Below are positions 1 to 24,351 of a stretch of DNA of 24,351 nucleotides, piece by piece. Under the pieces are notes generated by a model that made no database searches, was not told the DNA's origin, and saw only the letters and a list, made by a program, of their open reading frames with translations. The stretch is from the UHGV virus genome UHGV-0125333; one strand, given 5' to 3'. The first letter of the stretch is position 1. Each line of letters opens with the position of its first letter. The stretch comes from a virus. A program made the translations under genes and the position numbers.

Positions 1-21
1 TTATCAATTTGTTGCAACGAA

Positions 22-52
22 CAGGTCACTATCAGTCAAAATAAAATCATTA
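22..52. promoter_or_regulatory. attP P' arm with three tandem arm-type Int binding sites (AGGTCACTAT, CAGTCAAAAT, AAATCATTAT)
   Basis: The sequence GGTCACTATCAGTCAAAATAAAATCATTAT immediately 3' of int matches the lambda P' arm as I recall it. The core overlap region is not inside the window. Confidence 0.6.
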
Positions 53-1120
53 TTTGATTTCAATTTTGTCCCACTCCCTGCCTCTGTCATCACGATACTG
101 TGATGCCATGGTGTCCGACTTATGCCCGAGAAGATGTTGAGCAAATTTATCGCTTATCTGCTTCTCATAGAGTCTTGCAGACAAACTGCGCAACTCGTGA
201 AAGGTTGGCGGATCCCCTTCGAAGGAGAGACCTGATGCTTTTCGTGCGCGCATAAAATACCTTGATACTGTGCCGGATGAAAGCGGTTCACGACGAGTAG
301 ATGCAATTATGGTTTCTCCGCCAAGAATCTTTTTGCATTTATCAAGTGTTTCCTTCATTGATATCCCGAGAGCATCAACATGCAATGTTGTTGGGATGGC
401 AATTTTTACGCCTGTTTTGCTTTGCTCGACATAAAGATATCCATCTACGATATCAGACCACTTCATTTCGCATAAATCACCAACTCGCTGCCCGGTAACA
501 ACAGCCAGTTCCATTGCAAGTCTGAGCCAACATGGTGATGATTCTGCTGCTTGATAAATTTTCAGGTATTCGTCAGCCGTAAGTCTTGATCTCCTTACCT
601 CTGATTTTGCTGCGCGAGTGGCAGCGACAGGGTTTGTTGTTATATGGCCTTCAGCTATTGCCTCTCGGAATGCATCGCTCAGTGTTGATCTGATTAACTT
701 GGCTGACGCCGCCTTGCCCTCGTCTATGTATCCATTGAGCATTGCCGCAATTTCTTTTGTGGTGATGTCTTCAAGTGGAGCATCAGGCAGACCCCTCCTT
801 ATTGCTTTAATTTTGCTCATGTAATTTATGAGTGTCTTCTGCTTGATTCCTCTGCTGGCCAGGATTTTTTCGTAGCGATCAAGCCATGAATGTAACGTAA
901 CGGAATTATCACTGTTGATTCTCGCTGTCAGAGGCTTGTGTTTGTGTCCTGAAAATAACTCAATGTTGGCCTGTATAGCTTCAGTGATTGCGATTCGCCT
1001 GTCTCTGCCTAATCCAAACTCTTTACCCGTCCTTGGGTCCCTGTAGCAGTAATATCCATTGTTTCTTATATAAAGGTTAGGGGGTAAATCCCGGCGCTCA
1101 TGACTTCGCCTTCTTCCCAT
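50..1120 (-). CDS. int: Tyrosine integrase, lambda Int type
   Basis: 356-aa ORF; N-terminus MGRRRSHERRDLPPNLYIRNNGYYCYRDPRTGKEFGLG and the C-terminal catalytic region (HELRSLSARLY ... HLLGHKSDTMASQY) match lambda Int as recalled. Confidence 0.97.
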   Translation of the reverse strand: MGRRRSHERRDLPPNLYIRNNGYYCYRDPRTGKEFGLGRDRRIAITEAIQANIELFSGHKHKPLTARINSDNSVTLHSWLDRYEKILASRGIKQKTLINYMSKIKAIRRGLPDAPLEDITTKEIAAMLNGYIDEGKAASAKLIRSTLSDAFREAIAEGHITTNPVAATRAAKSEVRRSRLTADEYLKIYQAAESSPCWLRLAMELAVVTGQRVGDLCEMKWSDIVDGYLYVEQSKTGVKIAIPTTLHVDALGISMKETLDKCKKILGGETIIASTRREPLSSGTVSRYFMRARKASGLSFEGDPPTFHELRSLSARLYEKQISDKFAQHLLGHKSDTMASQYRDDRGREWDKIEIK

Positions 1121-1316
1121 TTCTGATCCTCTTCAAAAGGCTACCTGTTACTGGTCGATTTAAGTCAACCTTTACCGCTGATTCGTGGAACAGATATTCT
1201 CTTCCATCCTTAACCGGAGGAGGGAATATCCTGCATTCGCGCACCCATCGACGAACTGTTTCAAGGCTTCTTGGGCGTCGCTGGCGAGCGTTCCACTCCT
1301 GAAGTGTCAAGTACAT
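1098..1316 (-). CDS. xis: Excisionase Xis
   Basis: 72-aa ORF MYLTLQEWNARQRRPRSLETVRRWVRE... matching lambda Xis; its 3' end overlaps the int start as in lambda. Confidence 0.95.
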   Translation of the reverse strand: MYLTLQEWNARQRRPRSLETVRRWVRECRIFPPPVKDGREYLFHESAVKVDLNRPVTGSLLKRIRNGKKAKS

Positions 1317-1611
1317 CGCAAAGTCTCCGCAATTACACGCAAGAAAAAACCGCCATCAGGCGGCTTGGTGTTCTTTCAGTTCTTCAATTCGAATATTGGT
1401 TACGTCTGCATGTGCTATCTGCGCCCACAGCATCCAGTGGTCATAGCAGTCGCTGATGTTCTCGGCTTCGATAACTCTGTTGAATGGTTCTCCATTCCAT
1501 TCACCTGTAACTCGGAAGTGCATTTATCATCGCCATAAAACAAAACTCGCCGTAGCGAGTTCAGATAAAAGAAATCCCCGCGAGTGCGAGGATAGTTACT
1601 TGTTCATATTA

Positions 1612-1893
1612 TTAATCGTCAATGTATTTTGAGCATTGTGGGCAATCATCGATCCCACAATACGATTCATATGCATCCTTTATTGCGTCGCGGGCTTCAG
1701 TAAGAGTATTGAATAAGTTGCAGCTATTATCTTTTTGATATAGGTAAGTTCCTAATTTATAAGCAGAAGAAGCATCATTTCCGCTGTCTAAAATTACATC
1801 ATTATGGATTCTGCACCTTGCAAGAACTCCTGATCCCATAAGGGTCTGCATAGCCCATTGCTCTTGATCTTCACACAAATCATGAATGCTCAT
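1612..1893 (-). CDS. Ea8.5-like small Cys/His-rich protein
   Basis: ORF in the lambda ea8.5 position, ending in a Cys/His-rich tail (CPQCSKYIDD) like lambda Ea8.5. ATG at 1893 is preceded by a GAGGTG RBS; the track ORF extends to a GTG at 1911. Confidence 0.6.
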   Translation of the reverse strand: MSIHDLCEDQEQWAMQTLMGSGVLARCRIHNDVILDSGNDASSAYKLGTYLYQKDNSCNLFNTLTEARDAIKDAYESYCGIDDCPQCSKYIDD

Positions 1894-2007
1894 TTCAACA
1901 CCTCTCTTCACGTTTCACACACGTTAAGATTAACAGTGTTTTTACATGCTTTGGGAGATTTATTTTATAAAAACTCTTTTAATACAAATAGATATAATAG
2001 TTCACTA

Positions 2008-2805
2008 TTATAGCTCCTTTAATCGAGGCGGTTCTGGTAGAGGCATCCAGTGGGTTACACCGCCAATTGGCTCATCGTCGTCGTACTCCAATGCGGCTAT
2101 ATAGAACCCGTCACGACGAGAATAAGAAATCCCGGACATTACAATGCCATCCGAAACAACAATAATGTCACCCGTTTCTTTCGGCATTCGCTCACTACAG
2201 CTTATCCAACCATCCGGAGTCACCGGAAGCGAGAACGGCAGCACATCTCTGTGAACAAGTTTTTGCTGTGACAGGTTATCCAGAACTTTCTGTACTGCTG
2301 CATCACCGAATACACCAAGCGCATCTGCCATAACTCCTACAACCTGATAAGCCTCAGCGCATACCGTGGATAAACCATCCGGAATTACCGGAGAGTTGCC
2401 GGGTTCTTTAATGTGCAAGCGAGGCTCACCATCTTTTGGTTCAGGCCACTGGCGCTCCATGTTGATCTTCAATTTATCTTCCATAGCAGCGGTAATTTCA
2501 GCATCGCTGATGCCAGCACGGCGCTGTGCATCCCACAACAGGAAATGCATATCAGCCCACTCGCTGAGATCGTCTGGTTCGGCTGCGGCTTCCAGAGCCT
2601 CTTTTGAGAGGTGTTTCAGTGGACCAATGGGGCCAACGCAGCCAAATGTGGAGTCAGACCATTTGGCATGCTCGTGGCGAATCAGTTCGCGTTCCAGTGA
2701 TGCCAGTGCAATTCGTGCCAGTTCCATTTGTTCGCCACGAGTAAGCCCGTTTTCAAGCGGATTTTTAATGAACAATTCAATACGTTCTTTGGTAATAGTG
2801 GTCAT
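2008..2805 (-). CDS. Phage protein with N-terminal dATP/dGTP diphosphohydrolase-like (DUF550) domain and C-terminal DUF551 domain
   Basis: 265-aa ORF with an AAGGAC RBS. The N-terminal half resembles the MazG-like DUF550 family and the C-terminal half (DGWISCSERMP ... GVTHWMPLPEPP) the DUF551 family, a combination common in enterobacterial prophages. Assigned from recall only. Confidence 0.7.
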   Translation of the reverse strand: MTTITKERIELFIKNPLENGLTRGEQMELARIALASLERELIRHEHAKWSDSTFGCVGPIGPLKHLSKEALEAAAEPDDLSEWADMHFLLWDAQRRAGISDAEITAAMEDKLKINMERQWPEPKDGEPRLHIKEPGNSPVIPDGLSTVCAEAYQVVGVMADALGVFGDAAVQKVLDNLSQQKLVHRDVLPFSLPVTPDGWISCSERMPKETGDIIVVSDGIVMSGISYSRRDGFYIAALEYDDDEPIGGVTHWMPLPEPPRLKEL

Positions 2806-2815
2806 TTGTTAGTCC

Positions 2816-3571
2816 TTAAACTGCTAGTTGCAATTGCATTTCAAAGCGGTCGCGTTGTTCACAATACGCAAGAGAACCAGGGCTATTGTGTGCCTCAATC
2901 CGTTCTACCATTAATGCTGCGCGTGTCTCTTTACTTGCAGGTGCATAAGCCCCAGACCAGGCTTTATCAATACCGATGTTTCGAGCGACGTTCGTACTAT
3001 CTGCGCTGGCTAAGGGTAATTTTGTGAATATCAGCGGATTTAACATGCGCAATCCATGTAGTTTCGTAACCGGCTGACCATGCCCATCAACAATGTGACG
3101 AATCAGGTCTTTCATTCTGGCTACCGCAAGAGTTGGGCGCTTTACGTCATAGTCGCCACAACTACCGATAGCCACTCGCGGAAACTCATTGCACAAATGA
3201 ATAAATCGCGCGTCACTTTCATTCATGTGCCACACTGGAACGCCAGCTAGTTTTCCGTGAGGCCACTCATTCAGAAGCGCATCATTTTCCTCCTCTCCGC
3301 CATCAATAATATCCGGGATAATGGCAAAATCGAATCCTGGGTGATTCTTCCAGCGAGCAACAAACTCGTAGTAATCGCTCCAGTCGATTTTGTTTTTGCC
3401 AGCTGCTTTCCAGGCGGTGAATGCACCGTTGTCCAGCGCGAACGACTGACAGTATTCAGCCGCGAGATTGATCTGGCCTGAATGCGCAAAACTGATAAAC
3501 GCATGTCGCCCTTTCCATGCTCTCATTGCGCACGTATCAGGAGTAATAGGCCCACCGTGGTAGTGAATCAT
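2816..3571 (-). CDS. Hypothetical protein (251 aa), family not assigned
   Basis: Long ORF; ATG at 3571 lies 4 nt after the Ea22-like stop and is preceded by an AAGGAG RBS. The track ORF extends 14 codons further upstream. No family confidently recognised. Confidence 0.6.
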   Translation of the reverse strand: MIHYHGGPITPDTCAMRAWKGRHAFISFAHSGQINLAAEYCQSFALDNGAFTAWKAAGKNKIDWSDYYEFVARWKNHPGFDFAIIPDIIDGGEEENDALLNEWPHGKLAGVPVWHMNESDARFIHLCNEFPRVAIGSCGDYDVKRPTLAVARMKDLIRHIVDGHGQPVTKLHGLRMLNPLIFTKLPLASADSTNVARNIGIDKAWSGAYAPASKETRAALMVERIEAHNSPGSLAYCEQRDRFEMQLQLAV

Positions 3572-3572
3572 C

Positions 3573-3980
3573 TCACTCTCCTTTGATGCGAATGCCAGTA
3601 GCGCGGATTGCATCGATGACTTCAGAAACTTTGTATGCCATTACCGTTTGGTAATCATCGTGAAAATCTGTTCGATGAAGCATGCTGCTACGTTCCGGGA
3701 GCAGTATTTCCCGCGCTTCCAGTTCTGCAATGCGCTTTTTTGCTGCTTCCAGTTCATCCAGTAATTCCAGCACGGTAGCCGGATTAGCCTTGGCAACAAA
3801 ATCCCGGACTGGCTTACAATCAATCTCCGCAATGGGTTGATACGATGTGTAGCCATGCTGTCTTGTATAACTACCGTGACGAATAACGAAAAAATCACCA
3901 TTTATTTTTTTAGCCTGCCACTTATCTTCACCGGCTTTCTCTGCCGCTTCACGCAGTGCCTGAGAGTTAATTTCGCTCAC
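3573..3980 (-). CDS. Ead/Ea22-like protein
   Basis: 135-aa ORF starting MSEINSQALREAAEKAGEDKWQAKKINGDFFVIRHG with a coiled-coil-like ELLDELEAAKKRIAELEA segment; resembles the Ead/Ea22-like prophage family. Confidence 0.7.
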   Translation of the reverse strand: MSEINSQALREAAEKAGEDKWQAKKINGDFFVIRHGSYTRQHGYTSYQPIAEIDCKPVRDFVAKANPATVLELLDELEAAKKRIAELEAREILLPERSSMLHRTDFHDDYQTVMAYKVSEVIDAIRATGIRIKGE

Positions 3981-4198
3981 TTCGAACCTCTCTGTTTACT
4001 GATAAGCTCCAGATCCTCCTGGCAACTTGCACAAGTCCGACAACCCTGAACGACCAGGCGTCTTCGTTCATCTATCGGATCGCCACACTCACAACAATGA
4101 GTGGCAGATACAGTCTGGTAGTTCAGACGACGCATTTTTATTGCTGTGTTGCGCTGTAATTCTTCAATTTCTGATGCTGAATCAATGATGTCTGCCAT
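3977..4198 (-). CDS. TraR/DksA-family C4 zinc-finger protein
   Basis: 73-aa ORF with CxxC ... CxxC spacing (CCECGDPIDERRRLVVQGCRTCASC) typical of phage TraR/DksA zinc fingers; its stop overlaps the downstream start (ATGA). Confidence 0.8.
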   Translation of the reverse strand: MADIIDSASEIEELQRNTAIKMRRLNYQTVSATHCCECGDPIDERRRLVVQGCRTCASCQEDLELISKQRGSK

Positions 4199-4250
4199 CT
4201 TCCATTAATCCCTGAATTGTTGGTTAATACGCTTGAGGGTGAATGCGAAT

Positions 4251-4274
4251 AATAAAAAAGGAGCCTGTAGCTCC
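4251..4274 (-). terminator. Candidate intrinsic terminator within the leftward early operon
   Basis: On the minus strand, GGAGC-TACAG-GCTCC hairpin followed by TTTTTTATT, directly downstream of the ORF ending at 4297. Confidence 0.4.
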
Positions 4275-4296
4275 CTGATGATTTTGCTTTTCATGT

Positions 4297-4578
4297 TCAT
4301 CGTTCCTTAAAGACGCCGTTTAACATGCCGATTGCCAGGCTTAAATGAGTCGGTGTGAATCCCATCAGCGTTACCGTTTCGCGGTGCTTCTTCAGTACGC
4401 TACGGCAAATGTCATCGACGTTTTTATCCGGAAACTGCTGTCTGGCTTTTTTGATTTCAGAATTAGCCTGACGGGCAATGCTGCGAAGGGCGTTTTCCTG
4501 CTGAGGTGTCATTGAACAAGTCCCATGTCGGCAAGCATAAGCACACAGAATATGAAGCCCGCTGCCAGAAAAATGCAT
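4297..4578 (-). CDS. Small hypothetical phage protein (lambda orf61 position)
   Basis: 93-aa ORF; an internal ATG at 4512 (MTPQQENALRSIARQ...) is an alternative start. Start is ambiguous. Confidence 0.55.
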   Translation of the reverse strand: MHFSGSGLHILCAYACRHGTCSMTPQQENALRSIARQANSEIKKARQQFPDKNVDDICRSVLKKHRETVTLMGFTPTHLSLAIGMLNGVFKER

Positions 4579-4588
4579 TCAGTGGTTG

Positions 4589-4780
4589 TCATACCTGGTC
4601 TCTCTCATCTGCTTCTGCTTTCGCCACCATCATTTCCAGCTTTTGTGAAAGGGATGCGGCTAACGTGTGAAATTCTTCGTCTGTTTCTACTGGTATTGGC
4701 ACAAACCTGACTCCAATTTGAGCGAGGCTATGTGCCATCTCGATACTCGTTCTTAACTCAACGGGAGATGCTTTGTGCAT
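4589..4780 (-). CDS. Lambda orf63-like small protein
   Basis: 63-aa [26 protein letters not shown]...; same size and position as lambda orf63. Confidence 0.65.
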   Translation of the reverse strand: MHKASPVELRTSIEMAHSLAQIGVRFVPIPVETDEEFHTLAASLSQKLEMMVAKAEADERDQV

Positions 4781-4943
4781 ACAGCCCCCCCCATTTATTA
4801 TTTATCTCCTCAGCCAGCCGCTGTGCTTTCAGGGGATTTCGGATTACAGAAAGGCCGGGAAATACCCAGCCTCGCTTTGTAACGGAGTAGACGAAAGTGA
4901 TTGCGCCTACCCGGATATTATCGTGAGGATGCGTCATCGCCAT
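4758..4943 (-). CDS. Lambda orf60a-like small protein
   Basis: 61-aa [33 protein letters not shown]... whose start overlaps the exo stop as in lambda. Confidence 0.65.
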
Positions 4944-5614
4944 TGCTCCCCAAATACAAAACCAATTTCAGCCAGTGCCTCGTCCATTTTTTCGATGAAC
5001 TCCGGCACCATCTCGTCAAAACTCGCCATGTACTTTTCATTCCGCTCAATCACGACATAATGCAGGCCTTCACGCTTCATGCGCGGGTCATAGTTGGCAA
5101 AGTATCAGGCATCTTTTCGCGTCACCCACATGCTGTACTGCACCTGGGCCATGTAAGCCGATTTTATTGCCTCGAAACCACCGAGCCGGAATTTCATGAA
5201 ATCCCGGGAGGTAAACGGGCATTTCAGTTCAAGGCCGTTGCCGTCACTGCATAAACCATCGGGAGAGCAGGCGGTGCGCATATTTTCGTCGCGATAGATG
5301 ATCGGGGATTCAGTAATATTCACGCCGGAAGTGAATTCAAACAGGGTTCTGGCGTCGTTCTCGTACTGTTTTCCCCAGGCCAGCGCCTTAGCATTAACTT
5401 CCGGAGCCACACCGGTGCAAACCTCAGCCAGCAGGGTGTGGAAGTAGGACATTTTCATGTCAGGCCACTTCTTTCCTGAGCGGGGCTTTGCTATCACGTT
5501 GTGAACTTCTGAAGCGGTGATGACGCCGAGCCGTAATTTGTGCCATGCATCATCCCCCTGTTCGACAGCTCTCACGTCGATCCCGGTACGCTGCAGGATA
5601 ATGTCCGGTGTCAT
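4934..5614 (-). pseudogene. exo: Lambda exonuclease (Red-alpha) interrupted by a single in-frame TGA at codon 170
   Basis: The N-terminal 169 codons (5108..5614) match lambda Exo and end RKDA-TGA (5105..5107). The same frame continues without further stops for 56 codons ([20 protein letters not shown] ... GFVFGEQWR) to the normal stop at 4934..4936. Lambda has TGG (Trp) at this codon. Confidence 0.8.
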
Positions 5615-6396
5615 GCTGCCACCTTCTGCTCAGTGGCTTTCTGTTTAAGGAATCCAAGAGCTTTCACTGCTTCGGCCTGTGTCAGTTCTGACGATGCGCG
5701 AATGTCGCGGCGAAATATCTGGGAACAGAGCGGCAATAAGTCGTCATCCCATGTTTTATCCAGGGCGATCAGCAGAGTGTTAATCTCCTGCATGGTTTCA
5801 TCGTTAACCGGAGTGATGTCGCGTTCCGGCTGACGTTCTGCAGTGTATGCAGTATTTTCGACAATGCGCTCGGCTTCATCCTTGTCATAGATACCAGCAA
5901 ATCCGAAGGCCAGACGGGCACACTGAATCATGGCTTTATGCCGTAACATCCGTTTGGGATGCGACTGCCACGGCCCCGTGATTTCTCTGCCTTCGCGGGT
6001 TTTGAATGGTTCGCGGCGGCATTCATCCATCCATTCGGTAACGCAGATCGGATGATTACGGTCCTTGCGGTAAATCCGGCATGTACAGGATTCATTGTCC
6101 TGCTCAAAGTCCATGCCATCAAACTGCTGGTTTTCATTGATGATGCGGGACCAGCCATCAACGCCCACCACCGGAACAATGCCGTTCTGCTTATCAGGGA
6201 AGGCGTAAATTTCTTTCGTCCACGGATTAAGGCCGTACTGGTTGGCGACGATCAGCAATGCGATGAACTGCGCATCGCTGGCATCACCTTTAAATGCCGT
6301 CTGGCGAAGAGTGGTGATCAGTTCCTGTGGGTCGACAGAATCCATGCCGACACGTTCAGCCAGCTTCCCAGCCAGCGTTGCGAGTGCTGTACTCAT
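5611..6396 (-). CDS. bet: Red-beta single-strand annealing recombinase
   Basis: 261-aa [62 protein letters not shown]... matching lambda Bet; its stop overlaps the exo start. Confidence 0.95.
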
Positions 6397-6401
6397 CCGT
6401 T

Positions 6402-6818
6402 TTATACCTCTGAATCAATATCAACCTGGTGGTGAGCAATGGTTTCAACCATGTACCGGATGTGTTCTGCCATGCGCTCCTGAAACTCAACATCGTCATC
6501 AAACGCACGGGTAATGGCTTTTTTGCTGGCCCCGTGGCGTTGCAAATGATCGATGCATAGCGATTCAAACAGGTGCTGGGGCAGGCCTTTTTCCATGTCG
6601 TCTGCCAGTTCTGCCTCTTTCTCTTCACGGGCGATCTGCTGGTAGTGACGCGCCCAGCTCTGAGCCTCAAGACGATCCTGAATGTAATAAGCGTTCATGG
6701 CTGAACTCCTGAAATAGCTGTGAAAATATCGTCCGCGAAATGCCGGGCTGATTAGGAAAACAGGGAAGGGGGGTAGTGAATGCTTTTGCTTGATCTCAGT
6801 TTCAGTATTAATATCCAT
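6402..6818 (-). CDS. gam: Gam, RecBCD inhibitor
   Basis: 138-aa [58 protein letters not shown]... matching lambda Gam. Confidence 0.95.
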
Positions 6819-6916
6819 TTTTTATAAGCGTCGACGGCCTCACGAAACATCTTTTCATCGCCAATAAAAGTGGCGATAGTGAATTTAGTCTGGATAGCCA
6901 TAAGTGTTTGATCCAT
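6752..6916 (-). CDS. kil: Kil, host cell-division inhibitor
   Basis: Internal ATG at 6916 gives [40 protein letters not shown]..., matching lambda Kil as recalled. The track ORF extends upstream into the cIII overlap. Confidence 0.8.
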
Positions 6917-7049
6917 TTTTTGGGACTCCTGGCTGATTAAGTATGTCGATAAGGCGTTTCCATCCGTCACGTAATTTACGGGTGATTCGTTCAAGTAAAG
7001 ATTCGGAAGGGCAGCCAGCAACAGGCCACCCTGCAATGGCATATTGCAT
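6885..7049 (-). CDS. cIII: CIII, FtsH inhibitor that stabilises CII
   Basis: Hand translation of the minus strand from the ATG at 7049 gives [54 protein letters not shown] then stop. It is below the 60-aa cutoff of the ORF track. Confidence 0.85.
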   Translation of the reverse strand: MQYAIAGWPVAGCPSESLLERITRKLRDGWKRLIDILNQPGVPKNGSNTYGYPD

Positions 7050-7121
7050 GGTGTGCTCCTTATTTATACATAACGAAAAACGCCTCGAGTGAAGCGTTAT
7101 TGGTATGCGGTAACGCCGCGC

Positions 7122-7490
7122 TCAGGCGGCTTTGATAGTCATATCATCTGGATCAAATATTCCTGATGTATCGATATCGGTAATTCTTATTCCTTCGCTA
7201 CCATCCATTGGAGGCCATCCTTCCTGACCATTTCCATCATTCCAGTCGAACTCACACACAACACCATATGCATTTAAGTCGCTTGAAATTGCTATAAGCA
7301 GAGCATGTTGCGCCAGCATGATTAATACAGCATTTAATACAGAGCCGTGTTTATTGAGTCGGTATTCAGAGTCTGACCAGAAATTATTAATCTGGTGAAG
7401 TTTTTCCTCTGTCATTACGTCATGGTCGATTTCAATTTCTATTGATGCTTTCCAGTCGTAATCAATGATGTATTTTTTGATGTTTGACAT
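7122..7490 (-). CDS. ea10: Ea10 early protein
   Basis: 122-aa ORF MSNIKKYIIDYDWKASIEIEIDHDVMTEEKLHQINNFWSDSEYRL... matching lambda Ea10. Confidence 0.85.
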   Translation of the reverse strand: MSNIKKYIIDYDWKASIEIEIDHDVMTEEKLHQINNFWSDSEYRLNKHGSVLNAVLIMLAQHALLIAISSDLNAYGVVCEFDWNDGNGQEGWPPMDGSEGIRITDIDTSGIFDPDDMTIKAA

Positions 7491-7672
7491 CTATTCATAT
7501 CCTCATAGATAAAAAATCTCCCTCACACTGGAGGGCAAAGAAGATTTCCAATAATCAGAACAAGTCGGCTCCTGTTTAGTTACGAGCGACATTGCTCCGT
7601 GTATTCACTCGTTGGAATGAATACACAGTGCAGTGTTTATTCTGTTATTTATGCCAAAAATAAAGGTCACTA

Positions 7673-7873
7673 TCAGGCAGCTTTGTTGTTCTGTTTACCA
7701 AGTTCTCTGGCAATCATTGCCGTCGTTCGTATTGCCCATTTATCGACATATTTCCCATCTTCCATTACAGGAAACATTTCTTCAGGCTTAACCATGTATT
7801 CCGATTGCAGCTTGCATCCATTGCATCGCTTGAATTGTCCACACCATTGATTTTTATCAATAGTCGTAGTCAT
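7673..7873 (-). CDS. ral: Ral, restriction alleviation protein
   Basis: 66-aa ORF MTTTIDKNQWCGQFKRCNGCKLQSEYMVKPEEMFPVMEDGKYVDKWAIRTTAMIARELGKQNNKAA matching lambda Ral. Confidence 0.9.
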   Translation of the reverse strand: MTTTIDKNQWCGQFKRCNGCKLQSEYMVKPEEMFPVMEDGKYVDKWAIRTTAMIARELGKQNNKAA

Positions 7874-7943
7874 ACGGATAGTCCTGGTATTGTTCCATCA
7901 CATCCTGAGGATGCTCTTCGAACTCTTCAAATTCTTCTTCCAT
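7857..7943 (-). CDS. orf28-like acidic 28-aa peptide
   Basis: Hand translation gives MEEEFEEFEEHPQDVMEQYQDYPYDYDY then stop, overlapping the ral start by 17 nt, as lambda orf28 does. Confidence 0.45.
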   Translation of the reverse strand: MEEEFEEFEEHPQDVMEQYQDYPYDYDY

Positions 7944-8070
7944 ATATCACCTTAAATAGTGGATAGCGGTAGTAAAGATTGTGCCTGTCTTTTAACCACA
8001 TCAGGCTCGGTGGTTCTCGTGTACCCCTACAGCGAGAAATCGGATAAACTATTACAACCCCTACAGTTTG

Positions 8071-8622
8071 ATGAGTATAGAAATGGATCCACTCGTTATT
8101 CTCGGACGAGTGTTCAGTAATGAACCTCTGGAGAGAACCATGTATATGATCGTTATCTGGGTTGGACTTCTGCTTTTAAGCCCAGATAACTGGCCTGAAT
8201 ATGTTAATGAGAGAATCGGTATTCCTCATGTGTGGCATGTTTTCGTCTTTGCTCTTGCATTTTCGCTAGCAATTAATGTGCATCGATTATCAGCTATTGC
8301 CAGCGCCAGATATAAGCGATTTAAGCTAAGAAAACGCATTAAGATGCAAAACGATAAAGTGCGATCAGTAATTCAAAACCTTACAGAAGAGCAATCTATG
8401 GTTTTGTGCGCAGCCCTTAATGAAGGCAGGAAGTATGTGGTTACATCAAAACAATTCCCATACATTAGTGAGTTGATTGAGCTTGGTGTGTTGAACAAAA
8501 CTTTTTCCCGATGGAACGGGAAGCATATATTATTCCCTATTGAGGATATTTACTGGACTGAATTAGTTGCCAGCTATGATCCATATAATATTGAGATAAA
8601 GCCAAGGCCAATATCTAAGTAA
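8071..8622 (+). CDS. sieB: SieB superinfection exclusion protein
   Basis: ORF convergent with N, with hydrophobic segments (MYMIVIWVGLLLLSPDNW..., VFVFALAFSLAINV), matching lambda SieB. ATG at 8071; the track ORF starts at TTG 8068. Confidence 0.8.
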   Translation: MSIEMDPLVILGRVFSNEPLERTMYMIVIWVGLLLLSPDNWPEYVNERIGIPHVWHVFVFALAFSLAINVHRLSAIASARYKRFKLRKRIKMQNDKVRSVIQNLTEEQSMVLCAALNEGRKYVVTSKQFPYISELIELGVLNKTFSRWNGKHILFPIEDIYWTELVASYDPYNIEIKPRPISK

Positions 8623-8946
8623 CTAAGTAAGAGGAATCGATTTTCCCTTAATTTTCTGGCGTCCACTGCATGTTATGCCGCGTTCGCCAGGCTTGCTGTA
8701 CCATGTGCGCTGATTCTTGCGCTCAATACGTTGCAGGTTGCTTTCAATCTGTTTGTGGTATTCAGCCAGCACTGTAAGGTCTATCGGATTTAGTGCGCTT
8801 TCTACTCGTGATTTCGGTTTGCGATTCAGCGAGAGAATAGGGCGGTTAACTGGTTTTGCGCTTACCCCAACCAACAGGGGATTTGCTGCTTTCCATTGAG
8901 CCTGTTTCTCTGCGCGACGTTCGCGGCGGCGTGTTTGTGCATCCAT
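8623..8946 (-). CDS. N: N antitermination protein
   Basis: From the internal ATG at 8946: MDAQTRRRERRAEKQAQWKAANPLLVGVSAKPVNRPILSLNRKPKSRVESALNPIDLT..., 107 aa with the arginine-rich motif of lambda N. Confidence 0.95.
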   Translation of the reverse strand: MDAQTRRRERRAEKQAQWKAANPLLVGVSAKPVNRPILSLNRKPKSRVESALNPIDLTVLAEYHKQIESNLQRIERKNQRTWYSKPGERGITCSGRQKIKGKSIPLT

Positions 8947-9103
8947 CTGGATTCTCCTGTCAGTTAGCTTTGGTTGTGTGTGGGAGTCGTAGTCCTGAAC
9001 GAAAACACCCAGCAATGGCACATTGACAGCTAATCCGGATTCGCACTTCCGGCCAATGCTTCGTTTCGTATCACACACACCAAAGCCTTCTGCTTTGAAT
9101 GCT

Positions 9104-9134
9104 GCCCTTCTTCAGGGCTTAATTTTTAAGAGCA
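9104..9134 (-). promoter_or_regulatory. nutL (boxB hairpin plus boxA-like element)
   Basis: Plus strand reads GCCCTTCTTCAGGGC (reverse complement of lambda nutL boxB GCCCTGAAGAAGGGC) followed by TTAATTTTTAAGAGCA (boxA, one mismatch to CGCTCTTAA). Confidence 0.7.
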
Positions 9135-9178
9135 TCACCTTCATGGTGGTCAGTGCGTCCTGCTGATGGCCTAAAATA

Positions 9179-9259
9179 TACCTACAGGTAAAGCAGTTGT
9201 CTATACCTGCAGGTAAATAAAATTGATGTAAGAGTTTACCTGCTTGAATTTTCAGGTAA
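9179..9259. promoter_or_regulatory. oL/pL region with repressor operators
   Basis: Palindromes TACCTACAGGTA (9179..9190) and TACCTGCAGGTA (9204..9215), plus TTACCTG-N10-CAGGTAA (9237..9259), upstream of nutL and N. The same motif recurs in the cI-cro intergenic region. Confidence 0.55.
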
Positions 9260-9279
9260 TTAATTTTTTGGATTGATAT

Positions 9280-9300
9280 AAAAAAGCCCGCTTTGCGGGC
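9280..9300 (-). terminator. Intrinsic terminator ending the repressor operon
   Basis: On the minus strand, GCCCGC-AAA-GCGGGC hairpin followed by TTTTTT, 13 nt downstream of the ORF ending at 9313. Confidence 0.6.
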
Positions 9301-9312
9301 TGAAAGGAGATG

Positions 9313-9627
9313 TCAGAAGCTATTTGGATTGCTTGGCCATTGCGGCAATTTTGATTCTACTGGGGTGTGTTTGGGTTTGAGTCCGTTTAAGTAGTCAAGA
9401 CGCTCAATGGCGCATTTATACATAGCAATCTGCTCTGATGACATGTCGTCGTATGACATGCCTTTGAACTTTTTAATTATCGATTCTGCCTCATGTATAA
9501 GATGCTTCTTCTTCATGAGTTCAGCTGTATGCTTAGAGCTTACAGGAGATAACTTTGCCCATATGAAGCAGATGATTACAACAGCGACTACTATGCCGGG
9601 TATAAACACTTGCTGCTTTATCCTCAA
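9313..9627 (-). CDS. Small single-pass membrane protein co-transcribed with the repressor (rex-locus position); candidate exclusion or lysogeny-associated factor
   Basis: 104-aa ORF with an N-terminal hydrophobic helix (VFIPGIVVAVVIICFIWAKL). Its ATG overlaps the repressor stop (ATGA) and a terminator follows. Confidence 0.7.
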   Translation of the reverse strand: MRIKQQVFIPGIVVAVVIICFIWAKLSPVSSKHTAELMKKKHLIHEAESIIKKFKGMSYDDMSSEQIAMYKCAIERLDYLNGLKPKHTPVESKLPQWPSNPNSF

Positions 9628-10310
9628 ACTTTTGGCAGATCGTCCTGGTCTACGTACCTGGTGTGTTTCACAATAGCTGAAACAAAATGCATTTTATCAA
9701 CTTCTTCAACAGGAAGAGTGATTGGGCGGTGATCACTGTTTATGCTACTAAACTGATAATCACCGTCTCTTGTTTTGTTCATGATCTTTATCATGTTGTG
9801 ACCGTCTTTGGTCCTTACAAAGACTTCATCACCTGGATGTACTGGCGTATTTGGTTCAATAACAACATATTCTCCTGACTGAATCCTTGGCCACATGCTG
9901 TCACCCTTAACCTTCAGACCGTAAGCATCGTTATCGCCGCTGTAGATGCTTAACCAACCGGATCTGAATTCAATCATATCCACTGAGCCATCAACTCCCA
10001 AAACGGCTTCACCAATTACCGGAACAAAACCCGCACGAACGTTACCCGCAAACTCAAGATGGTCTGTAGCTCCAGCTTTACCATCTGCAAGCATGTCCAT
10101 CCATCCGCGTGGGAGATTAAAAGATTTTTCAATTAGTTCCATCATATCGTCAGCAATGCGTTTTTTTCCGCTTTTTCCTTCCGGATACAGCATTCTGGAA
10201 ACGTATGATGGTTCCCTTTCTATTCGACGAGCCAACTCTGAGGCCTTTCCATTACAGAATCGGTCTCTTATCTCTATCAGCCTTAGTCGTCTTTGTTCGT
10301 ATTTATCCAT
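9624..10310 (-). CDS. CI-like prophage repressor with C-terminal LexA/S24 peptidase-like domain (non-lambda immunity)
   Basis: 228-aa ORF divergent from the cro-like gene. The C-terminal region (GDSMWPRIQSGEYVVIEP ... DEVFVRTKDGHNMIKI) has the S24 Ser/Lys autocleavage fold pattern. Operators lie on both sides. Confidence 0.88.
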   Translation of the reverse strand: MDKYEQRRLRLIEIRDRFCNGKASELARRIEREPSYVSRMLYPEGKSGKKRIADDMMELIEKSFNLPRGWMDMLADGKAGATDHLEFAGNVRAGFVPVIGEAVLGVDGSVDMIEFRSGWLSIYSGDNDAYGLKVKGDSMWPRIQSGEYVVIEPNTPVHPGDEVFVRTKDGHNMIKIMNKTRDGDYQFSSINSDHRPITLPVEEVDKMHFVSAIVKHTRYVDQDDLPKV

Positions 10311-10330
10311 GATTTAATTCTATCTTTGAT

Positions 10331-10382
10331 TACCTGCCGGTAAATAACCTATGGGTATTGATTTGATTTTTACCTACAGGTA
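10331..10382. promoter_or_regulatory. oR/pR-pRM region with repressor operators
   Basis: TACCTGCCGGTA (10331..10342), a degenerate copy near 10346..10358 and TACCTACAGGTA (10371..10382), between the divergent repressor and cro-like genes. A GGAAGGAGA RBS precedes cro. Confidence 0.6.
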
Positions 10383-10418
10383 AACTCATCTTATTCAACA
10401 ACGGGAAGGAGATAGCAA

Positions 10419-10649
10419 ATGGAAGAACTCCGCTTGTATCTGAACTCCCTTTCACTGGAAGAGCAGAGAGAATTTGCCACCAAGTGCGGAACTTCTATCG
10501 GCTATTTGAGGAAAGCACTTAGCCGTAATCATGAATTGGGCGCAGCACTTTGTGTTCTGATTGAGAAGTTCAGCAATGGTGAAGTGACTCGCAAAGACCT
10601 TCATCCGGTTGATTGGGAAAGCATCTGGCCTGAATTAATGGCCGCTTAA
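10419..10649 (+). CDS. Cro-like HTH regulator (YdaS/Cro family)
   Basis: 76-aa ORF transcribed divergently from the repressor, with strong RBS and an HTH-like segment (ATKCGTSIGYLRKALSRN). Confidence 0.75.
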   Translation: MEELRLYLNSLSLEEQREFATKCGTSIGYLRKALSRNHELGAALCVLIEKFSNGEVTRKDLHPVDWESIWPELMAA

Positions 10650-10657
10650 GTTATTAA

Positions 10658-10689
10658 CGCTCTTACACATCCCCGCCCTGAAAAAGGGC
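10658..10689 (+). promoter_or_regulatory. nutR (boxA CGCTCTTAC and boxB GCCCTGAAAAAGGGC)
   Basis: Exact lambda-like boxA and boxB hairpin immediately downstream of the cro-like stop. Confidence 0.8.
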
Positions 10690-10765
10690 ATTACCAGAAA
10701 CAAATCTCTATGGTTTTGCGTTTCTTTGCGAAGCCAACTCTATCTAATCATTAAGGAAATTATCT

Positions 10766-11047
10766 ATGAGTACTATTGCAACTAAAAGCAAGAAAGCGGC
10801 TCGCATCGAGTCAGCCTTGCTGAACAAACTGGCACTGATGGGGCAGAAGACATTCGCTCGAGCAATGGGGGTTCCTGAATATCAGGTAAGCCGATGGAAG
10901 AATGGTTTCTTCTCGCAGGTAAGCATGATGCTGGCTGTTCTGGAATACGGAATCGAAGACGATGAAATGGCTGAGCTGACTAAGCGGCTTGCCAATTACC
11001 TGACAAAAGAAAAAGCCCCGAAGAACGGCGAATTCTTCGAGGCCTGA
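10766..11047 (+). CDS. cII: CII-like transcriptional activator
   Basis: 93-aa ORF whose ARIESALLNKLALMG ... QVSRWK ... SMMLAVLEYGIEDDEMAEL segment parallels lambda CII (ALRIESALLNKIAMLG ... QISRWK ... SMLLAVLEWGVVDDDMARL). Confidence 0.85.
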   Translation: MSTIATKSKKAARIESALLNKLALMGQKTFARAMGVPEYQVSRWKNGFFSQVSMMLAVLEYGIEDDEMAELTKRLANYLTKEKAPKNGEFFEA

Positions 11048-11081
11048 TGTAGAAAGACTGGATCAATCCACAGGAGTCATT

Positions 11082-11981
11082 ATGACAAATACAGCAAAAA
11101 TACTCAACTTCGGCAGAGGTAACTTTGCCGGACAGGAGCGTAATGTGGCAGATCTCGATGATGGTTACGCCAGACTATCAAATATGCTGCTTGAGGCTTA
11201 TTCGGGCGCAGATCTGACCAAGCGACAGTTTAAAGTGCTGCTTGCCATTCTGCGTAAAACCTATGGGTGGAATAAACCAATGGACAGAATCACCGATTCT
11301 CAACTTAGCGAGATTACAAAGTTACCTGTCAAACGGTGCAATGAAGCCAAGTTAGAACTCGTCAGAATGAATATTATCAAGCAGCAAGGCGGCATGTTTG
11401 GACCAAACAAAAACATCTCAGAATGGTGCATCCCTCAAAACGAGGGAAAATCCCCTAAAACGAGGGATAAAACATCCCTCAAATTGGGGGATTGCTATCC
11501 CTCAAAACAGGGGGACACAAAAGACACTATTACAAAAGAAAAAAGAAAAGATTATTCGTCCGAGAATTCTGGCGAATCCTCTGACCAGCCAGAAAACGAT
11601 CTTTCTGTGGTTAAACCGGATGCTGCAATTCAGAGCGGCAGTAAGTGGGGAACAGCAGAAGACCTGACCGCCGCAGAGTGGATGTTTGACATGGTGAAGA
11701 CCATCGCGCCATCAGCCAGAAAACCGAATTTTGCTGGGTGGGCTAACGATATCCGCCTGATGCGTGAACGTGACGGACGTAACCACCGCGATATGTGTGT
11801 GCTTTTCCGCTGGGCCTGCCAGGACAACTTCTGGTCCGGTAACGTGCTGAGTCCGGCCAAACTCCGCGACAAGTGGACCCAGCTCGAAATCAACCGTAAC
11901 AAGCAACAGGCTGGCGTGACAGCCGGAAAACCAAAACTCGACCTGACAAACACTGACTGGATTTACGGGGTGGATCTATGA
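11082..11981 (+). CDS. O: Replication initiator O
   Basis: 299-aa ORF MTNTAKILNFGRGNFAGQERNVADLDDGYARLSNMLLEAY... matching lambda O; it contains the ori iterons internally. Confidence 0.95.
   Translation: MTNTAKILNFGRGNFAGQERNVADLDDGYARLSNMLLEAYSGADLTKRQFKVLLAILRKTYGWNKPMDRITDSQLSEITKLPVKRCNEAKLELVRMNIIKQQGGMFGPNKNISEWCIPQNEGKSPKTRDKTSLKLGDCYPSKQGDTKDTITKEKRKDYSSENSGESSDQPENDLSVVKPDAAIQSGSKWGTAEDLTAAEWMFDMVKTIAPSARKPNFAGWANDIRLMRERDGRNHRDMCVLFRWACQDNFWSGNVLSPAKLRDKWTQLEINRNKQQAGVTAGKPKLDLTNTDWIYGVDL
11431..11560. repeat. Origin of replication inside O: four roughly 18-bp iterons followed by an AT-rich stretch
   Basis: TCCCTCAAAACGAGGGA, TCCCCTAAAACGAGGGA, ATCCCTCAAATTGGGGGA and ATCCCTCAAAACAGGGGGA, then AAAAGACACTATTACAAAAGAAAAAAGAAAAG. 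Confidence 0.85.
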
Positions 11982-12679
11982 AAAACATCGCCGCACAGAT
12001 GGTTAACTTTGACCGTGAGCAGATGCGTCGGATCGCCAACAACATGCCGGAACAGTACGACGAAAAGCCACAGGTACAGCAGGTAGCGCAGATCATCAAC
12101 GGTGTGTTCAGCCAGTTACTGGCAACTTTCCCGGCGAGTCTGGCTAACCGTGACCAGAACGAACTGAACGAAATCCGCCGCCAGTGGGTTCTGGCTTTCC
12201 GGGAAAACGGGATCACCACAATGGAACAGGTTAACGCAGGAATGCGCGTAGCCCGTCGGCAGAATCGACCATTTCTGCCATCACCCGGGCAGTTTGTTGC
12301 ATGGTGCCGGGAAGAAGCATCCGTTATCGCCGGACTGCCAAACGTCAGCGAGCTGGTTGATATGGTTTACGAGTATTGCCGGAAGCGAGGCCTGTATCCG
12401 GATGCGGAGTCTTATCCGTGGAAATCAAACGCGCACTACTGGCTGGTTACCAACCTGTATCAGAACATGCGGGCCAATGCGCTTACTGATGCGGAATTAC
12501 GGCGCAAGGCTGCCGATGAACTGACCTGTATGACAGCGCGAATTAACCGTGGTGAGACGATACCTGAACCAGTAAAACAACTTCCTGTTATGGGCGGTAG
12601 ACCTCTAAATCGTGCACAGGCTCTGGCGAAGATCGCAGAAATTAAAGCTAAGTTCGGACTGAAAGGAGCAAGTGTATGA
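11978..12679 (+). CDS. P: Replication protein P (DnaB helicase loader)
   Basis: 233-aa ORF MKNIAAQMVNFDREQMRRIANNMPEQYDEKPQVQQVAQIINGVFSQLLATFPASLANRDQ... matching lambda P; its start overlaps the O stop. Confidence 0.95.
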   Translation: MKNIAAQMVNFDREQMRRIANNMPEQYDEKPQVQQVAQIINGVFSQLLATFPASLANRDQNELNEIRRQWVLAFRENGITTMEQVNAGMRVARRQNRPFLPSPGQFVAWCREEASVIAGLPNVSELVDMVYEYCRKRGLYPDAESYPWKSNAHYWLVTNLYQNMRANALTDAELRRKAADELTCMTARINRGETIPEPVKQLPVMGGRPLNRAQALAKIAEIKAKFGLKGASV

Positions 12680-12966
12680 CGGGCAAAGAGGCAATTATTC
12701 ATTACCTGGGGACGCATAATAGCTTCTGTGCGCCGGACGTTGCCGCGCTAACAGGCGCAACAGTAACCAGCATAAATCAGGCCGCGGCTAAAATGGCACG
12801 GGCAGGTCTTCTGGTTATCGAAGGTAAGGTCTGGCGAACGGTGTATTACCGGTTTGCTACCAGGGAAGAACGGGAAGGAAAGATGAGCACGAACCTGATT
12901 TTTAAGGAGTGTCGCCAGAGTGCCGCGATGAAACGGGTATTGGCGGTATATGGAGTTAAAAGATGA
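12676..12966 (+). CDS. ren: Ren (Rex exclusion escape)
   Basis: 96-aa ORF MTGKEAIIHYLGTHNSFCAPDVAALTGATVTSINQAAAKMARAGLLVIEG... matching lambda Ren. Confidence 0.9.
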   Translation: MTGKEAIIHYLGTHNSFCAPDVAALTGATVTSINQAAAKMARAGLLVIEGKVWRTVYYRFATREEREGKMSTNLIFKECRQSAAMKRVLAVYGVKR

Positions 12967-12990
12967 CCATCTACATTACTGAGCTAATAA

Positions 12991-13020
12991 CAGGCCTGCT
13001 GGTAATCGCAGGCCTTTTTA
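12991..13020 (+). terminator. tR2-like intrinsic terminator
   Basis: CAGGCCTGC-TGGTAATC-GCAGGCCT hairpin followed by TTTTTATTT, between ren and ninB. Confidence 0.6.
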
Positions 13021-13039
13021 TTTGGGGGAGAGGGAAGTC

Positions 13040-13480
13040 ATGAAAAAACTAACCTTTGAAATTCGATCTCCAGCACATCAGCAAAACGCTATTCACGCAG
13101 TACAGCAAATCCTTCCAGACCCAACCAAACCAATCGTAGTAACCATTCAGGAACGCAACCGCAGCTTAGACCAAAACAGGAAGCTATGGGCCTGCTTAGG
13201 TGACGTCTCTCGTCAGGTTGAATGGCATGGTCGCTGGCTGGATGCAGAAAGCTGGAAGTGTGTGTTTACCGCAGCATTAAAGCAGCAGGATGTTGTTCCT
13301 AACCTTGCCGGGAATGGCTTTGTGGTAATAGGCCAGTCAACCAGCAGGATGCGTGTAGGCGAATTTGCGGAGCTATTAGAGCTTATACAGGCATTCGGTA
13401 CAGAGCGTGGCGTTAAGTGGTCAGACGAAGCGAGACTGGCTCTGGAGTGGAAAGCGAGATGGGGAGATCGGGCTGCATGA
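13040..13480 (+). CDS. ninB: NinB (Orf) recombination mediator
   Basis: From the ATG at 13040: MKKLTFEIRSPAHQQNAIHAVQQILPDPTKPIVVTIQERNRSLDQNRKLWACLGDVSRQ..., 146 aa matching lambda NinB. Confidence 0.9.
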   Translation: MKKLTFEIRSPAHQQNAIHAVQQILPDPTKPIVVTIQERNRSLDQNRKLWACLGDVSRQVEWHGRWLDAESWKCVFTAALKQQDVVPNLAGNGFVVIGQSTSRMRVGEFAELLELIQAFGTERGVKWSDEARLALEWKARWGDRAA

Positions 13481-14004
13481 CTATCAAATCAAATACGCCA
13501 GCACACGACAAGGACTGCTGGCAAACGCCGCTTTGGCTTTTTGATGCACTGGATATTGAGTTTGGATTCTGGCTGGATTCGGCAGCGAGCGACAAAAATG
13601 CTCTGTGTGCTCACTGGCTAACTGAGGCCGACGACGCGCTCAATTCTGAGTGGGTAAGCCACGGTGCAATCTGGAATAACCCACCGTACAGCAATATCAG
13701 GCCGTGGGTGGAAAAAGCTGCTGAGCAGTGCATACAACAGCGACAGACGGTAGTTATGCTTGTGCCAGAGGATATGTCAGTCGGATGGTTCAGCAAGGCT
13801 CTGGAGAGTGTCGACGAAGTTCGCATTATCACTGATGGACGGATTAATTTTATCGAACCATCGACAGGGCTGGAGAAGAAGGGAAACAGCAAAGGCTCCA
13901 TGCTGCTGATTTGGCGACCGTTCATCAGTCCTCGACGGATGTTTACTACCGTATCCAAAGCGGCATTGATGGCGATCGGGCAGGGCGTCAGGAGGGCGGC
14001 ATGA
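13477..14004 (+). CDS. Phage Dam-family N6-adenine DNA methyltransferase
   Basis: ATG overlaps the ninB stop (ATGA). Contains the NPPY catalytic motif ([11 protein letters not shown]) and occupies the ninC/ninD slot between ninB and ninE. Confidence 0.85.
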
Positions 14005-14177
14005 GGCGACAGCGACGAAGTTTCACCGACATCATCTGCGAAAACTGCAAATACCTTCCAACGAAACGCTCCAGAAATAAACGCAAGCCAATCCCAAAAG
14101 AATCTGACGTAAAAACCTTCAATTACACAGCTCACCTGTGGGATATCCGGTGGCTAAGATATCGTGCGAGGAAATGA
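14001..14177 (+). CDS. ninE: NinE
   Basis: From the ATG at 14001: [58 protein letters not shown], matching lambda NinE; overlaps the methyltransferase stop (ATGA). Confidence 0.85.
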
Positions 14178-14521
14178 CAATGGATTATTCACAGTTAAGT
14201 GATTTTGAAATTAACAGAATGGTAGGAGACATAATTTTTAAAGGCCTTTGGGCAAGTAAACCGGAAACATCAGGGAATAACACCAACAAATGGTATTACG
14301 GAAATGCTGATACAACTTTTGAGCCATTAAATCATTTGCCTGACTACTGCAATGATCCGAGCGCTTCATGGCCGATTATTGAGAAATACAGGATTTCTAT
14401 CTTAGACCAGTTAACTGAATGGTGTGTGGATGCAAAAGGCGTAAGCCCAATATTTGATACCAGACCTCTCCGCGCCGCCATGATTGTCTTTCTCCTGATG
14501 CAGGAGGCCAATAATGCTTAG
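14174..14521 (+). CDS. Hypothetical phage protein, DUF2591/NinX-like
   Basis: ATG at 14174 overlaps the ninE stop; 115 aa starting [26 protein letters not shown].... Family assignment is from memory only. Confidence 0.55.
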
Positions 14522-14708
14522 CCCATCTCAATCCCTTCAATACCTGAAAGGAAGCATAGAGCGGGCTTCAATGTGCACAGAGTGGATTCTATCTAGGTTT
14601 AGCGCATACAGAAGATTGCCGGTAAAGGGCATGCCAAGCAAGTCGATGCTGCATATGCAAAAGAATGCGCGCTGGAAGGTATGGCGAGAACACAGGTTAT
14701 CTGGCTGA
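14514..14708 (+). CDS. Small ORF of uncertain validity (possibly the 5' part of a frameshifted gene)
   Basis: 64-aa ORF overlapping the upstream stop by 8 nt. A second frame (14603..14731) encodes a plausible C-terminus with no start codon and ends in a GTGA overlap with rusA. Confidence 0.3.
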
Positions 14709-14727
14709 AAGAGGGGGTTATTAAGGC

Positions 14728-15090
14728 GTGAATACCTACAGCATCACATTACCCTGGCCTCCGAGCAATAATCGCTATTACCGCCATAATCGCGGGCGCA
14801 CGCACGTCAGCGCAGAGGGGCAGGCATACCGCGATAACGTCGCCCGAATCATTAAAAACGCAATGCTGGATATCGGCCTGACTATGCCTGTGAAAATCCG
14901 CATTGAGTGCCACATGCCGGATCGCCGTCGCCGTGACCTGGATAATCTGCAAAAAGCCGCTTTTGACGCACTCACTAAAGCAGGTTTCTGGCTGGATGAT
15001 GCTCAGGTCGTTGATTACCGCGTTGTGAAGATGCCTGTTACCAAAGGTGGGAGGCTGGAACTGACCATCACCGAAATGGGGAATGAATGA
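14728..15090 (+). CDS. rusA: RusA Holliday-junction resolvase
   Basis: 120-aa ORF (GTG start) [50 protein letters not shown]... matching RusA. Confidence 0.9.
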
Positions 15091-15227
15091 TGTTTGAGTT
15101 TAATATGGCAGAACTTCTTCGCCACCGCTGGGGGCGTCTGCGCTTATATCGTTTCCCCGGTTCTGTTTTGACCGATTACCGAATACTGAAGAATTACGCC
15201 AAAACACTGACAGGAGCAGGAGTATGA
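15087..15227 (+). CDS. ylcG: YlcG-like 46-aa protein
   Basis: Hand translation gives [46 protein letters not shown] then stop, overlapping the rusA stop; matches DLP12 YlcG as recalled. Confidence 0.7.
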
Positions 15228-15312
15228 AGTCAGAGATAACAATCAACTAATACTGTTTTGTTGATTTTTGCTTGTAATTGGCGTTCTGGTCTGAGTTTTG
15301 TGGAGTAAGTTG

Positions 15313-23605: not shown

Positions 23606-24301
23606 ATGAGCAGACCGGACTGGGGGGCGTTGCAGCAGGAGTATATTGCTGAATACACCCGCTCCGGTATATCTCCGGTGGCATGGTGTGAAGCAAGGGG
23701 ACTGAATTACGCAACAGCCCGTCGTTACATCAAAAAAACTCCGAAAAATGCGCAGACAGAAATGTGCAAAACTGCGCAAAAAAGTGCGCAGAAAAAATCT
23801 GCGCAGACTGCACAAAAGCGGAACGAAAAATCTCAGGAAAAAAAGCCAGTATTCGATGCGGGCCTGAATGAGGGCGACGCGGAGGAATTTTCGTTCTGTC
23901 CCGATGAATTCGGCATTTCTGACCAGCAGGCTAAGTTTGCGATGCTTGTTGCTCAGGGTAAAAAGCCGACAGAGGCGTACCGACTAGCCGGTTATGAGGG
24001 GCAAGGTGCGACAGCTAACAGCAACGCCAGTCGTATGCTTAGAAATGCCAGGGTTTTTCGCGCTATCAGCTACTTCCGCAATCAGTACCAGAAACGCTAT
24101 ACCGCAGACCTGGATTTACTAGTGAGTCAGTTGATGGCTATTGCCCTGGCCGACCCCAATCAGCTTGCACAATTTCGCCGTGTTAACTGCCGTTATTGCT
24201 GGGGCGAGAATCATCTCTACCAGTGGCGCGATATAGCAGAATTCGACAAGGCAGCGGCGCAGGCTTCCAGAGATGGCAAACCCGAACCGGAATATGGATG
24301 A
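23606..24301 (+). CDS. Terminase small subunit (Terminase_2-like)
   Basis: 231-aa ORF; the segment QQAKFAMLVAQGKKPTEAYRLAGYEG ... NASRMLRNARVFRAISYF resembles small-terminase DNA-binding domains. It is the first gene of the packaging module. Confidence 0.7.
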   Translation: MSRPDWGALQQEYIAEYTRSGISPVAWCEARGLNYATARRYIKKTPKNAQTEMCKTAQKSAQKKSAQTAQKRNEKSQEKKPVFDAGLNEGDAEEFSFCPDEFGISDQQAKFAMLVAQGKKPTEAYRLAGYEGQGATANSNASRMLRNARVFRAISYFRNQYQKRYTADLDLLVSQLMAIALADPNQLAQFRRVNCRYCWGENHLYQWRDIAEFDKAAAQASRDGKPEPEYG

Positions 24302-24351
24302 TCCTACCCACGTAATATGGACACAGGCCTAAGCGAGGTTCTTGTTTTCAA

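Follow-up and report, generated by a model that had tools for sequence, protein, structure and literature searches.

A premature opal codon at Trp170 of exo in a lambdoid prophage: probable recent pseudogenisation in a gut Escherichia coli clone

The Red exonuclease gene exo of the lambdoid prophage described here is very likely a recent loss-of-function allele (W170 opal), the outcome of ordinary pseudogenisation in a defective prophage carried by a gut Escherichia coli clone. In the proposed course of events, a spontaneous G-to-A change would have turned the invariant Trp170 codon into UGA in one E. coli clone, and translation would stop after residue 169 with the catalytic motif and the Bet-binding helix still in place. 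Deprived of two strands of the central β-sheet and of the C-terminal helix, the shortened protein would be expected to misfold or to form no trimeric ring, leaving the prophage Exo-null or nearly so, with Bet and Gam intact. At most a few per cent of the ribosomes that reach the UGA may read it as Trp and so make wild-type Exo, an effect that would be incidental and not programmed. The gene differs from a common, undamaged allele by this one lesion and shows no secondary decay, and because the rest of exo matches this very common allele, the mutation is judged to be recent.

The premature stop codon and its surroundings

The window, i.e. the whole stretch of 24,351 nucleotides that was analysed (UHGV virus genome UHGV-0125333), is the left 24.3 kb of an E. 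coli lambdoid prophage adjoining ybhC, the lambda attachment site. Within it, the exo frame occupies 681 nt of the minus strand, both stop codons included (5614..4934). The 5′ part (5105..5614) consists of 169 sense codons and a premature TGA (5107..5105), and the 3′ remainder (4934..5104) of 56 in-frame sense codons and the normal TGA (4936..4934), exactly as the original prediction had placed and counted them. A list of open reading frames breaks the gene in two, a 169-aa ORF (5105..5614) and a 48-aa ORF opening with ATG (4934..5080); in annotation, the label of an exo pseudogene (W170 opal) is to be preferred to two small ORFs.

Translation, alignment and comparison with lambda Exo all place the premature TGA at a TGG codon for Trp170. 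At column 510 of the nucleotide alignment, the window has A where the exo genes of E. coli 2018-18.25PC and phage 2G7b have G (TGA versus TGG), such that the lesion is one G-to-A transition, or C to T at 5105 on the plus strand, and the 171 nt that lie 3′ of the premature stop are the same as in both of these intact alleles. With codon 170 masked, the product is identical to lambda Exo at 220 of 226 residues without a gap, and lambda residue 170 is Trp, as the original prediction had stated. Since a single substitution sets the gene apart from an intact allele that is very common, a test for chance patterns is inapplicable to this stop codon.

The wild-type Trp170 codon lies within a Dcm site, CCTGG (window 5103-5110), which the mutation abolishes. 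Deamination of 5-methylcytosine at this hot spot was considered as the cause and rejected. The mutated base is the outer G, which pairs with the outer, unmethylated C; as the methylated inner C pairs with a different base, classic deamination is ruled out, and would in any case have produced TAG.

The surrounding genes retain the lambda Red layout, with gam, bet and exo on one strand, 3′ of cIII and kil, and with an overlapping bet/exo junction. The gene order and overlaps are those of lambda exo (Red-alpha; PDB 1AVQ, 3SM4, 6M9K), from which the window differs in having TGA in place of TGG at codon 170 and a primary product of 169 instead of 226 aa. The view that bet and gam are intact holds for both genes: bet (5611..6396, minus strand), which shares 4 nt with the start of exo, encodes 261 aa, 260 of them as in lambda Bet, and gam (6402..6818, minus strand) encodes the 138-aa long form, identical to lambda Gam at 135 of 138 positions. 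On the other side of exo, the ORF list and the annotation of relatives delimit a DUF1317 gene (4758..4937, minus strand), the homologue of lambda orf60a. Its start codon shares bases with the normal stop of exo (ATGA), and therefore, judging from this junction, it is probably coupled to translation of full-length exo. Upstream of exo within the shared pL operon is cIII (6885..7062, minus strand), identified from the ORF list and from a Pfam Lambda_CIII match on an identical contig. It carries a 5′ RNA thermoregulator (7004-7062, minus strand), a full-length match to Rfam RF01804 at 88.5 bits and the sole Rfam match in the window.

The wider gene order comprises int, xis, b-region genes, exo, bet, gam, kil, cIII, ral, sieB, N, cI and cro, followed by cII, O, P, ren, nin genes, Q, the lysis cassette, a trkG moron and the terminase genes. 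The integrase gene (50..1120, minus strand), mapped from the annotation of loci L002 and L009, marks the ybhC end of the prophage; the ybhC flank itself is found on contigs L003 and L004, and the chromosomal flank on contigs identical to the window is 99.9% identical to E. coli ybhC-ybhJ-ybhI. At the opposite end of the window, the 5′ part of the small-terminase gene terS (23606..24298, plus strand; a 100% match to L002, where terS is annotated) is broken at 24298, about two thirds into the gene, by a 53-nt end piece of an IS3 element (24299..24351, plus strand), the first 30 nt of which match the end of the IS3 annotated in L009. Contigs L003 and L004 end within about 25 nt of the terS/IS3 junction, which fits an assembly break at a repeat. 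The insertion thus marks the prophage as defective and accounts for the contigs ending there. On the strength of the terS interruption, the prophage is predicted to be packaging-defective and unable to complete a lytic cycle. Selection on phage recombination functions would then have been relaxed, since IS3 already disables the prophage.

Distribution of the opal allele

Intact relatives of this exo are abundant. The 5,426 complete E. coli genomes searched hold 5,318 exo-like places; identity there reached at most 99.9%, i.e. one mismatch in 681 nt, in dozens of genomes, and none of these places held the identical gene with TGA. A 71-nt query centred on the TGA had no exact match among 3,436 E. 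coli places or among 109 phage records, the phage collection searched comprising 50,697 records. Likewise, a 28-mer containing the TGA had no match in the viral, metagenome and species-representative genome contig collections, while the corresponding TGG 28-mer had at least 120 matches in each of the viral and metagenome collections, the two that were scanned for it. In a collection of 15 billion proteins, the Trp170 form of exactly this Exo protein was present on at least 1000 contigs, as against six for the 169-aa product; the 48-aa C-terminal remnant is called as a gene on 222 contigs.

A look-up of the exact product returned nine contigs, and the long ones shown carry the TGA. These carriers (ENA ERZ27293528, JGI 3300056517 and Logan SRR341674) are 100% identical to window positions 1-15614 (15,614 nt) and to one another over 17-20 kb including the chromosomal flank. 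They come from three pipelines: a MEGAHIT-style k109 contig in ENA, a JGI assembly and the Logan assembly of SRR341674. The presence of the same TGA in at least three assemblies, made by three pipelines, indicates a real allele of one clone, not an error of a single assembly. A literature search for the accessions of the carrier samples returned no mention of them. All relatives examined, as the original prediction had proposed to establish, have TGG at this codon, and TGA is confined to the clone whose contigs are 100% identical to the window over 15.6 kb. From these assembly contigs, the W170 opal allele appears to be rare or private to one clone.

Three short contigs, L006, L007 and L008, were rejected as further carriers. 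They end at codon 169 (...GCC, ...GCCT and ...GCCTG), and because a look-up by exact sequence picks contigs ending at this codon by construction, they are no evidence for the TGA. L006 and L007 are different alleles in bet and gam (99.1-99.2% identity). L008 (Logan SRR19064736_330577) is 1,041 nt long and joins window positions 5106-5807 to 6766-7106 at 100% identity, without 958 nt that include most of bet and gam; its last letters, TG, fall right before the variant base. This contig could be a true gam-bet deletion variant or an assembly chimera. A further count, in which all 195 of 195 fetched loci have TGG at codon 170, was not used as evidence of frequency, as the loci had been fetched with the TGG pattern and the count is circular.

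Consequences for Exo and alternative readings

Much of what identifies the protein as an exonuclease is kept in the 169-aa product. It retains the PD-(D/E)XK residues D119, E129 and K131, all invariant in the 24 homologues of alignment A2, as well as helix E (residues ~83-95), which contacts the C-terminal domain of Bet (PMC6393309). The Pfam YqaJ model (PF09588) matches residues 24-167 with E = 2e-29, and the whole model therefore falls within the truncated product. A phmmer comparison with PDB lambda Exo chains gave E of about 1e-154, and the NCBIfam model TIGR03033 scored below its cut-off for full and truncated Exo alike. A complete YqaJ match, however, would not make the lost tail dispensable, given the conservation of its sequence. 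Trp170 is invariant in the 24 homologues (56-98% identity), as are 18 further residues of the lost tail, namely F172, N174, D176, P177, R178, M179, R191, F199 and P204, followed by F206, I207, M210, D211, L214, G218, G222, Q224 and W225. The tail is of equal length in 24 of 24 homologues, proteins of 226-235 aa that were chosen as full-length.

Structural considerations point in the same direction. In an alignment-based AlphaFold2 model of a full-length homologue of 98% identity (mean pLDDT 86, pTM 0.85), the lost part holds two strands of the central β-sheet (169-174 and 186-190) and the long C-terminal helix (193-216). A single-sequence AlphaFold2 model of the 169-aa fragment had a pLDDT of 30 and was uninformative on folding. 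The PD-(D/E)XK domain is considered to cover the whole lambda Exo sequence (PMC11611040, a review), and in the homologous LHK-Exo trimer, C-terminal residues 194-202 take part in inter-subunit contacts (PMC3239189). The literature on lambda Exo that was searched contained no direct description of C-terminal truncations. Taken with the conservation of the tail, the homologue model suggests that the 169-aa product would be unable to form the toroidal trimer and would be inactive. The uninterrupted frame of about 226 codons that encodes the whole Exo fold is absent, broken by TGA at codon 170, and exo in this prophage is therefore classed as a pseudogene or null allele of the family and not as a working member. 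Recent inactivation, among the possibilities raised at the outset, is thus the one supported: the gene stands one base from an allele found on at least 1000 contigs, its 3′ 171 nt are unchanged, and the tail that it would lose is conserved.

Other readings of the same stop codon have been weighed. That the true codon is TGG, with exo intact and the TGA a sequencing or assembly error, is very unlikely, although none of the curated collections searched contains the opal allele, which has been seen in metagenome assemblies only, and the ENA, JGI and Logan contigs might re-assemble overlapping read sets. Against this, the three pipelines agree at base 5105 and over 15.6 kb, the change is a substitution situated outside any homopolymer run of the window sequence, and the 169-aa product is recorded on six contigs; the earlier suggestion of an error therefore finds little favour. 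Retention of nuclease or Bet-binding-type function by the 169-aa product, with or without a 48-aa peptide made by re-initiation, has a slimmer chance still. The whole YqaJ model, the catalytic triad and helix E are kept, and an in-frame ATG (at 5080) follows 24 nt 3′ of the stop, but 19 invariant residues and two core strands are lost, the 24 chosen full-length homologues all keep the tail, and no Shine-Dalgarno-like sequence precedes this ATG.

A different possibility is that functional decoding of the UGA supplies enough full-length Exo, possibly at a lowered Exo:Bet ratio, which is unlikely, if marginally less so than an error. At UGA in an E. coli K-12 reporter, Trp-tRNA competes with RF2 to give read-through of approximately 2% (37 °C) to 4% (25 °C) (PMC10570021). 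As the wild-type residue is Trp, any such read-through product would be authentic Exo, and the W170 opal allele may in this ordinary way be slightly leaky. Programmed recoding, in contrast, is unsupported. A 76-nt segment starting just before the UGA showed no SECIS-like or otherwise stable structure (MFE -15.7 kcal/mol against a shuffle mean of -15.8; z = 0.04), a scan of the whole window found no Rfam element near the UGA, the cIII thermoregulator being the only match, and ARAGORN found no tRNA gene in the window, hence no suppressor or dedicated tRNA nearby. Additionally, none of the 24 homologues has UGA, or Cys or Sec, at position 170, where Trp is invariant. The base directly 3′ of the UGA is U, a context of efficient termination, and termination at UGA is generally better in natural isolates than in K-12. 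The earlier suggestion that UGA read-through matters in this strain has thus gained no specific support from structure, tRNA genes or conservation of the TGA. Least probable of the readings considered is that the opal codon is kept because it is useful, allowing full Bet and Gam with a trickle of Exo through condition-dependent insertion of Trp. Were it so, recombination would be biased toward the annealing type with Exo-driven end resection limited, and the prophage would offer a natural case of stop-codon leakiness tuning a phage recombination system. The TGA allele is confined to one clone and so bears no sign of selection for it; nothing in the sequences compared suggests selection for an Exo-null, Bet-proficient state.

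Decay of exo and of related prophages

As a very likely recent loss-of-function allele in a defective prophage, W170 opal joins a fairly common class of broken exo alleles. Seven of 202 full-length exo copies in the fetched loci are disrupted by nonsense, frameshift or deletion. Complete genomes contain 163-aa frameshift products ending in ...STACG (P0134, P0135 and P0130), of which P0134 counts 133 member sequences and is present on a 5.3-Mb contig, and P0135 has an additional, second frameshifted stretch. These frameshifted genes, and the E. coli prophage remnants annotated as 'exonuclease, partial', resemble the window in carrying independent inactivating lesions, but theirs are frameshifts or deletions elsewhere in the gene. 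The window thereby adds a further case of the recombination genes of resident lambdoid prophages decaying through point mutation, frameshift or IS insertion. An Exo-deficient, Bet-proficient genotype is likewise shared with laboratory lambda red (exo) nonsense mutants and with Bet-only recombineering systems, although the laboratory mutants were selected as such and the allele in the window arose naturally in a gut E. coli prophage.

This prophage is best described as Bet+ Gam+, Exo-deficient and packaging-defective. In a repressed lysogen the Red genes are not expressed, and any consequence for recombination would be visible solely on derepression of the prophage. Once derepressed, an Exo-null, Bet-proficient prophage could in principle promote oligonucleotide-type annealing recombination. 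The expectation that such a genotype would support recombination with oligonucleotides but not at double-strand ends agrees with the finding that oligonucleotide recombination requires Bet and not Exo (PMC6393309).

The prophages of E. coli 2018-18.25PC, 23CRST009 and S1-CAM-01-C likewise lie beside ybhC, have a matching gene layout that includes the trkG moron, and are 98.5-100% identical to the window across most of its length. Unlike the window, they have exo annotated as intact, and their insertions lie elsewhere, in sieB, O and terL and in the form of an mcr-1 transposon. In all, the prophages of the complete-genome relatives carry IS1, IS2, IS3, IS1203 and the ISApl1-mcr-1 transposon at sites other than that of the window. 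This IS load indicates that prophages of the family are often decayed.

The closest complete-genome relative is E. coli 2018-18.25PC (L002), from a pig in Viet Nam. Its prophage holds the colistin-resistance transposon ISApl1-mcr-1-pap2-ISApl1 (L002 19818-24470) in an AraC-family gene, and the transposon is absent from the corresponding place in the window (17945/17946). In place of window 1579-2684, which encodes an ea8.5 homologue and the start of a dATP/dGTP pyrophosphohydrolase-DUF551 gene, L002 has a different segment with a DNA polymerase III theta pseudogene containing an internal stop.

Annotation mapped from a 100%-identical relative locates essD/rrrD/rzpD at 18793-19966, trkG at 20104-21561 and a ynaK fragment at 21699-21956 of the window. 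A Rac-type trkG potassium-transporter gene and the ynaK fragment thus stand between the lysis cassette and the terminase genes, and the prophage, which occupies the lambda attachment site, combines Rac-like with lambda-like modules in a mosaic.
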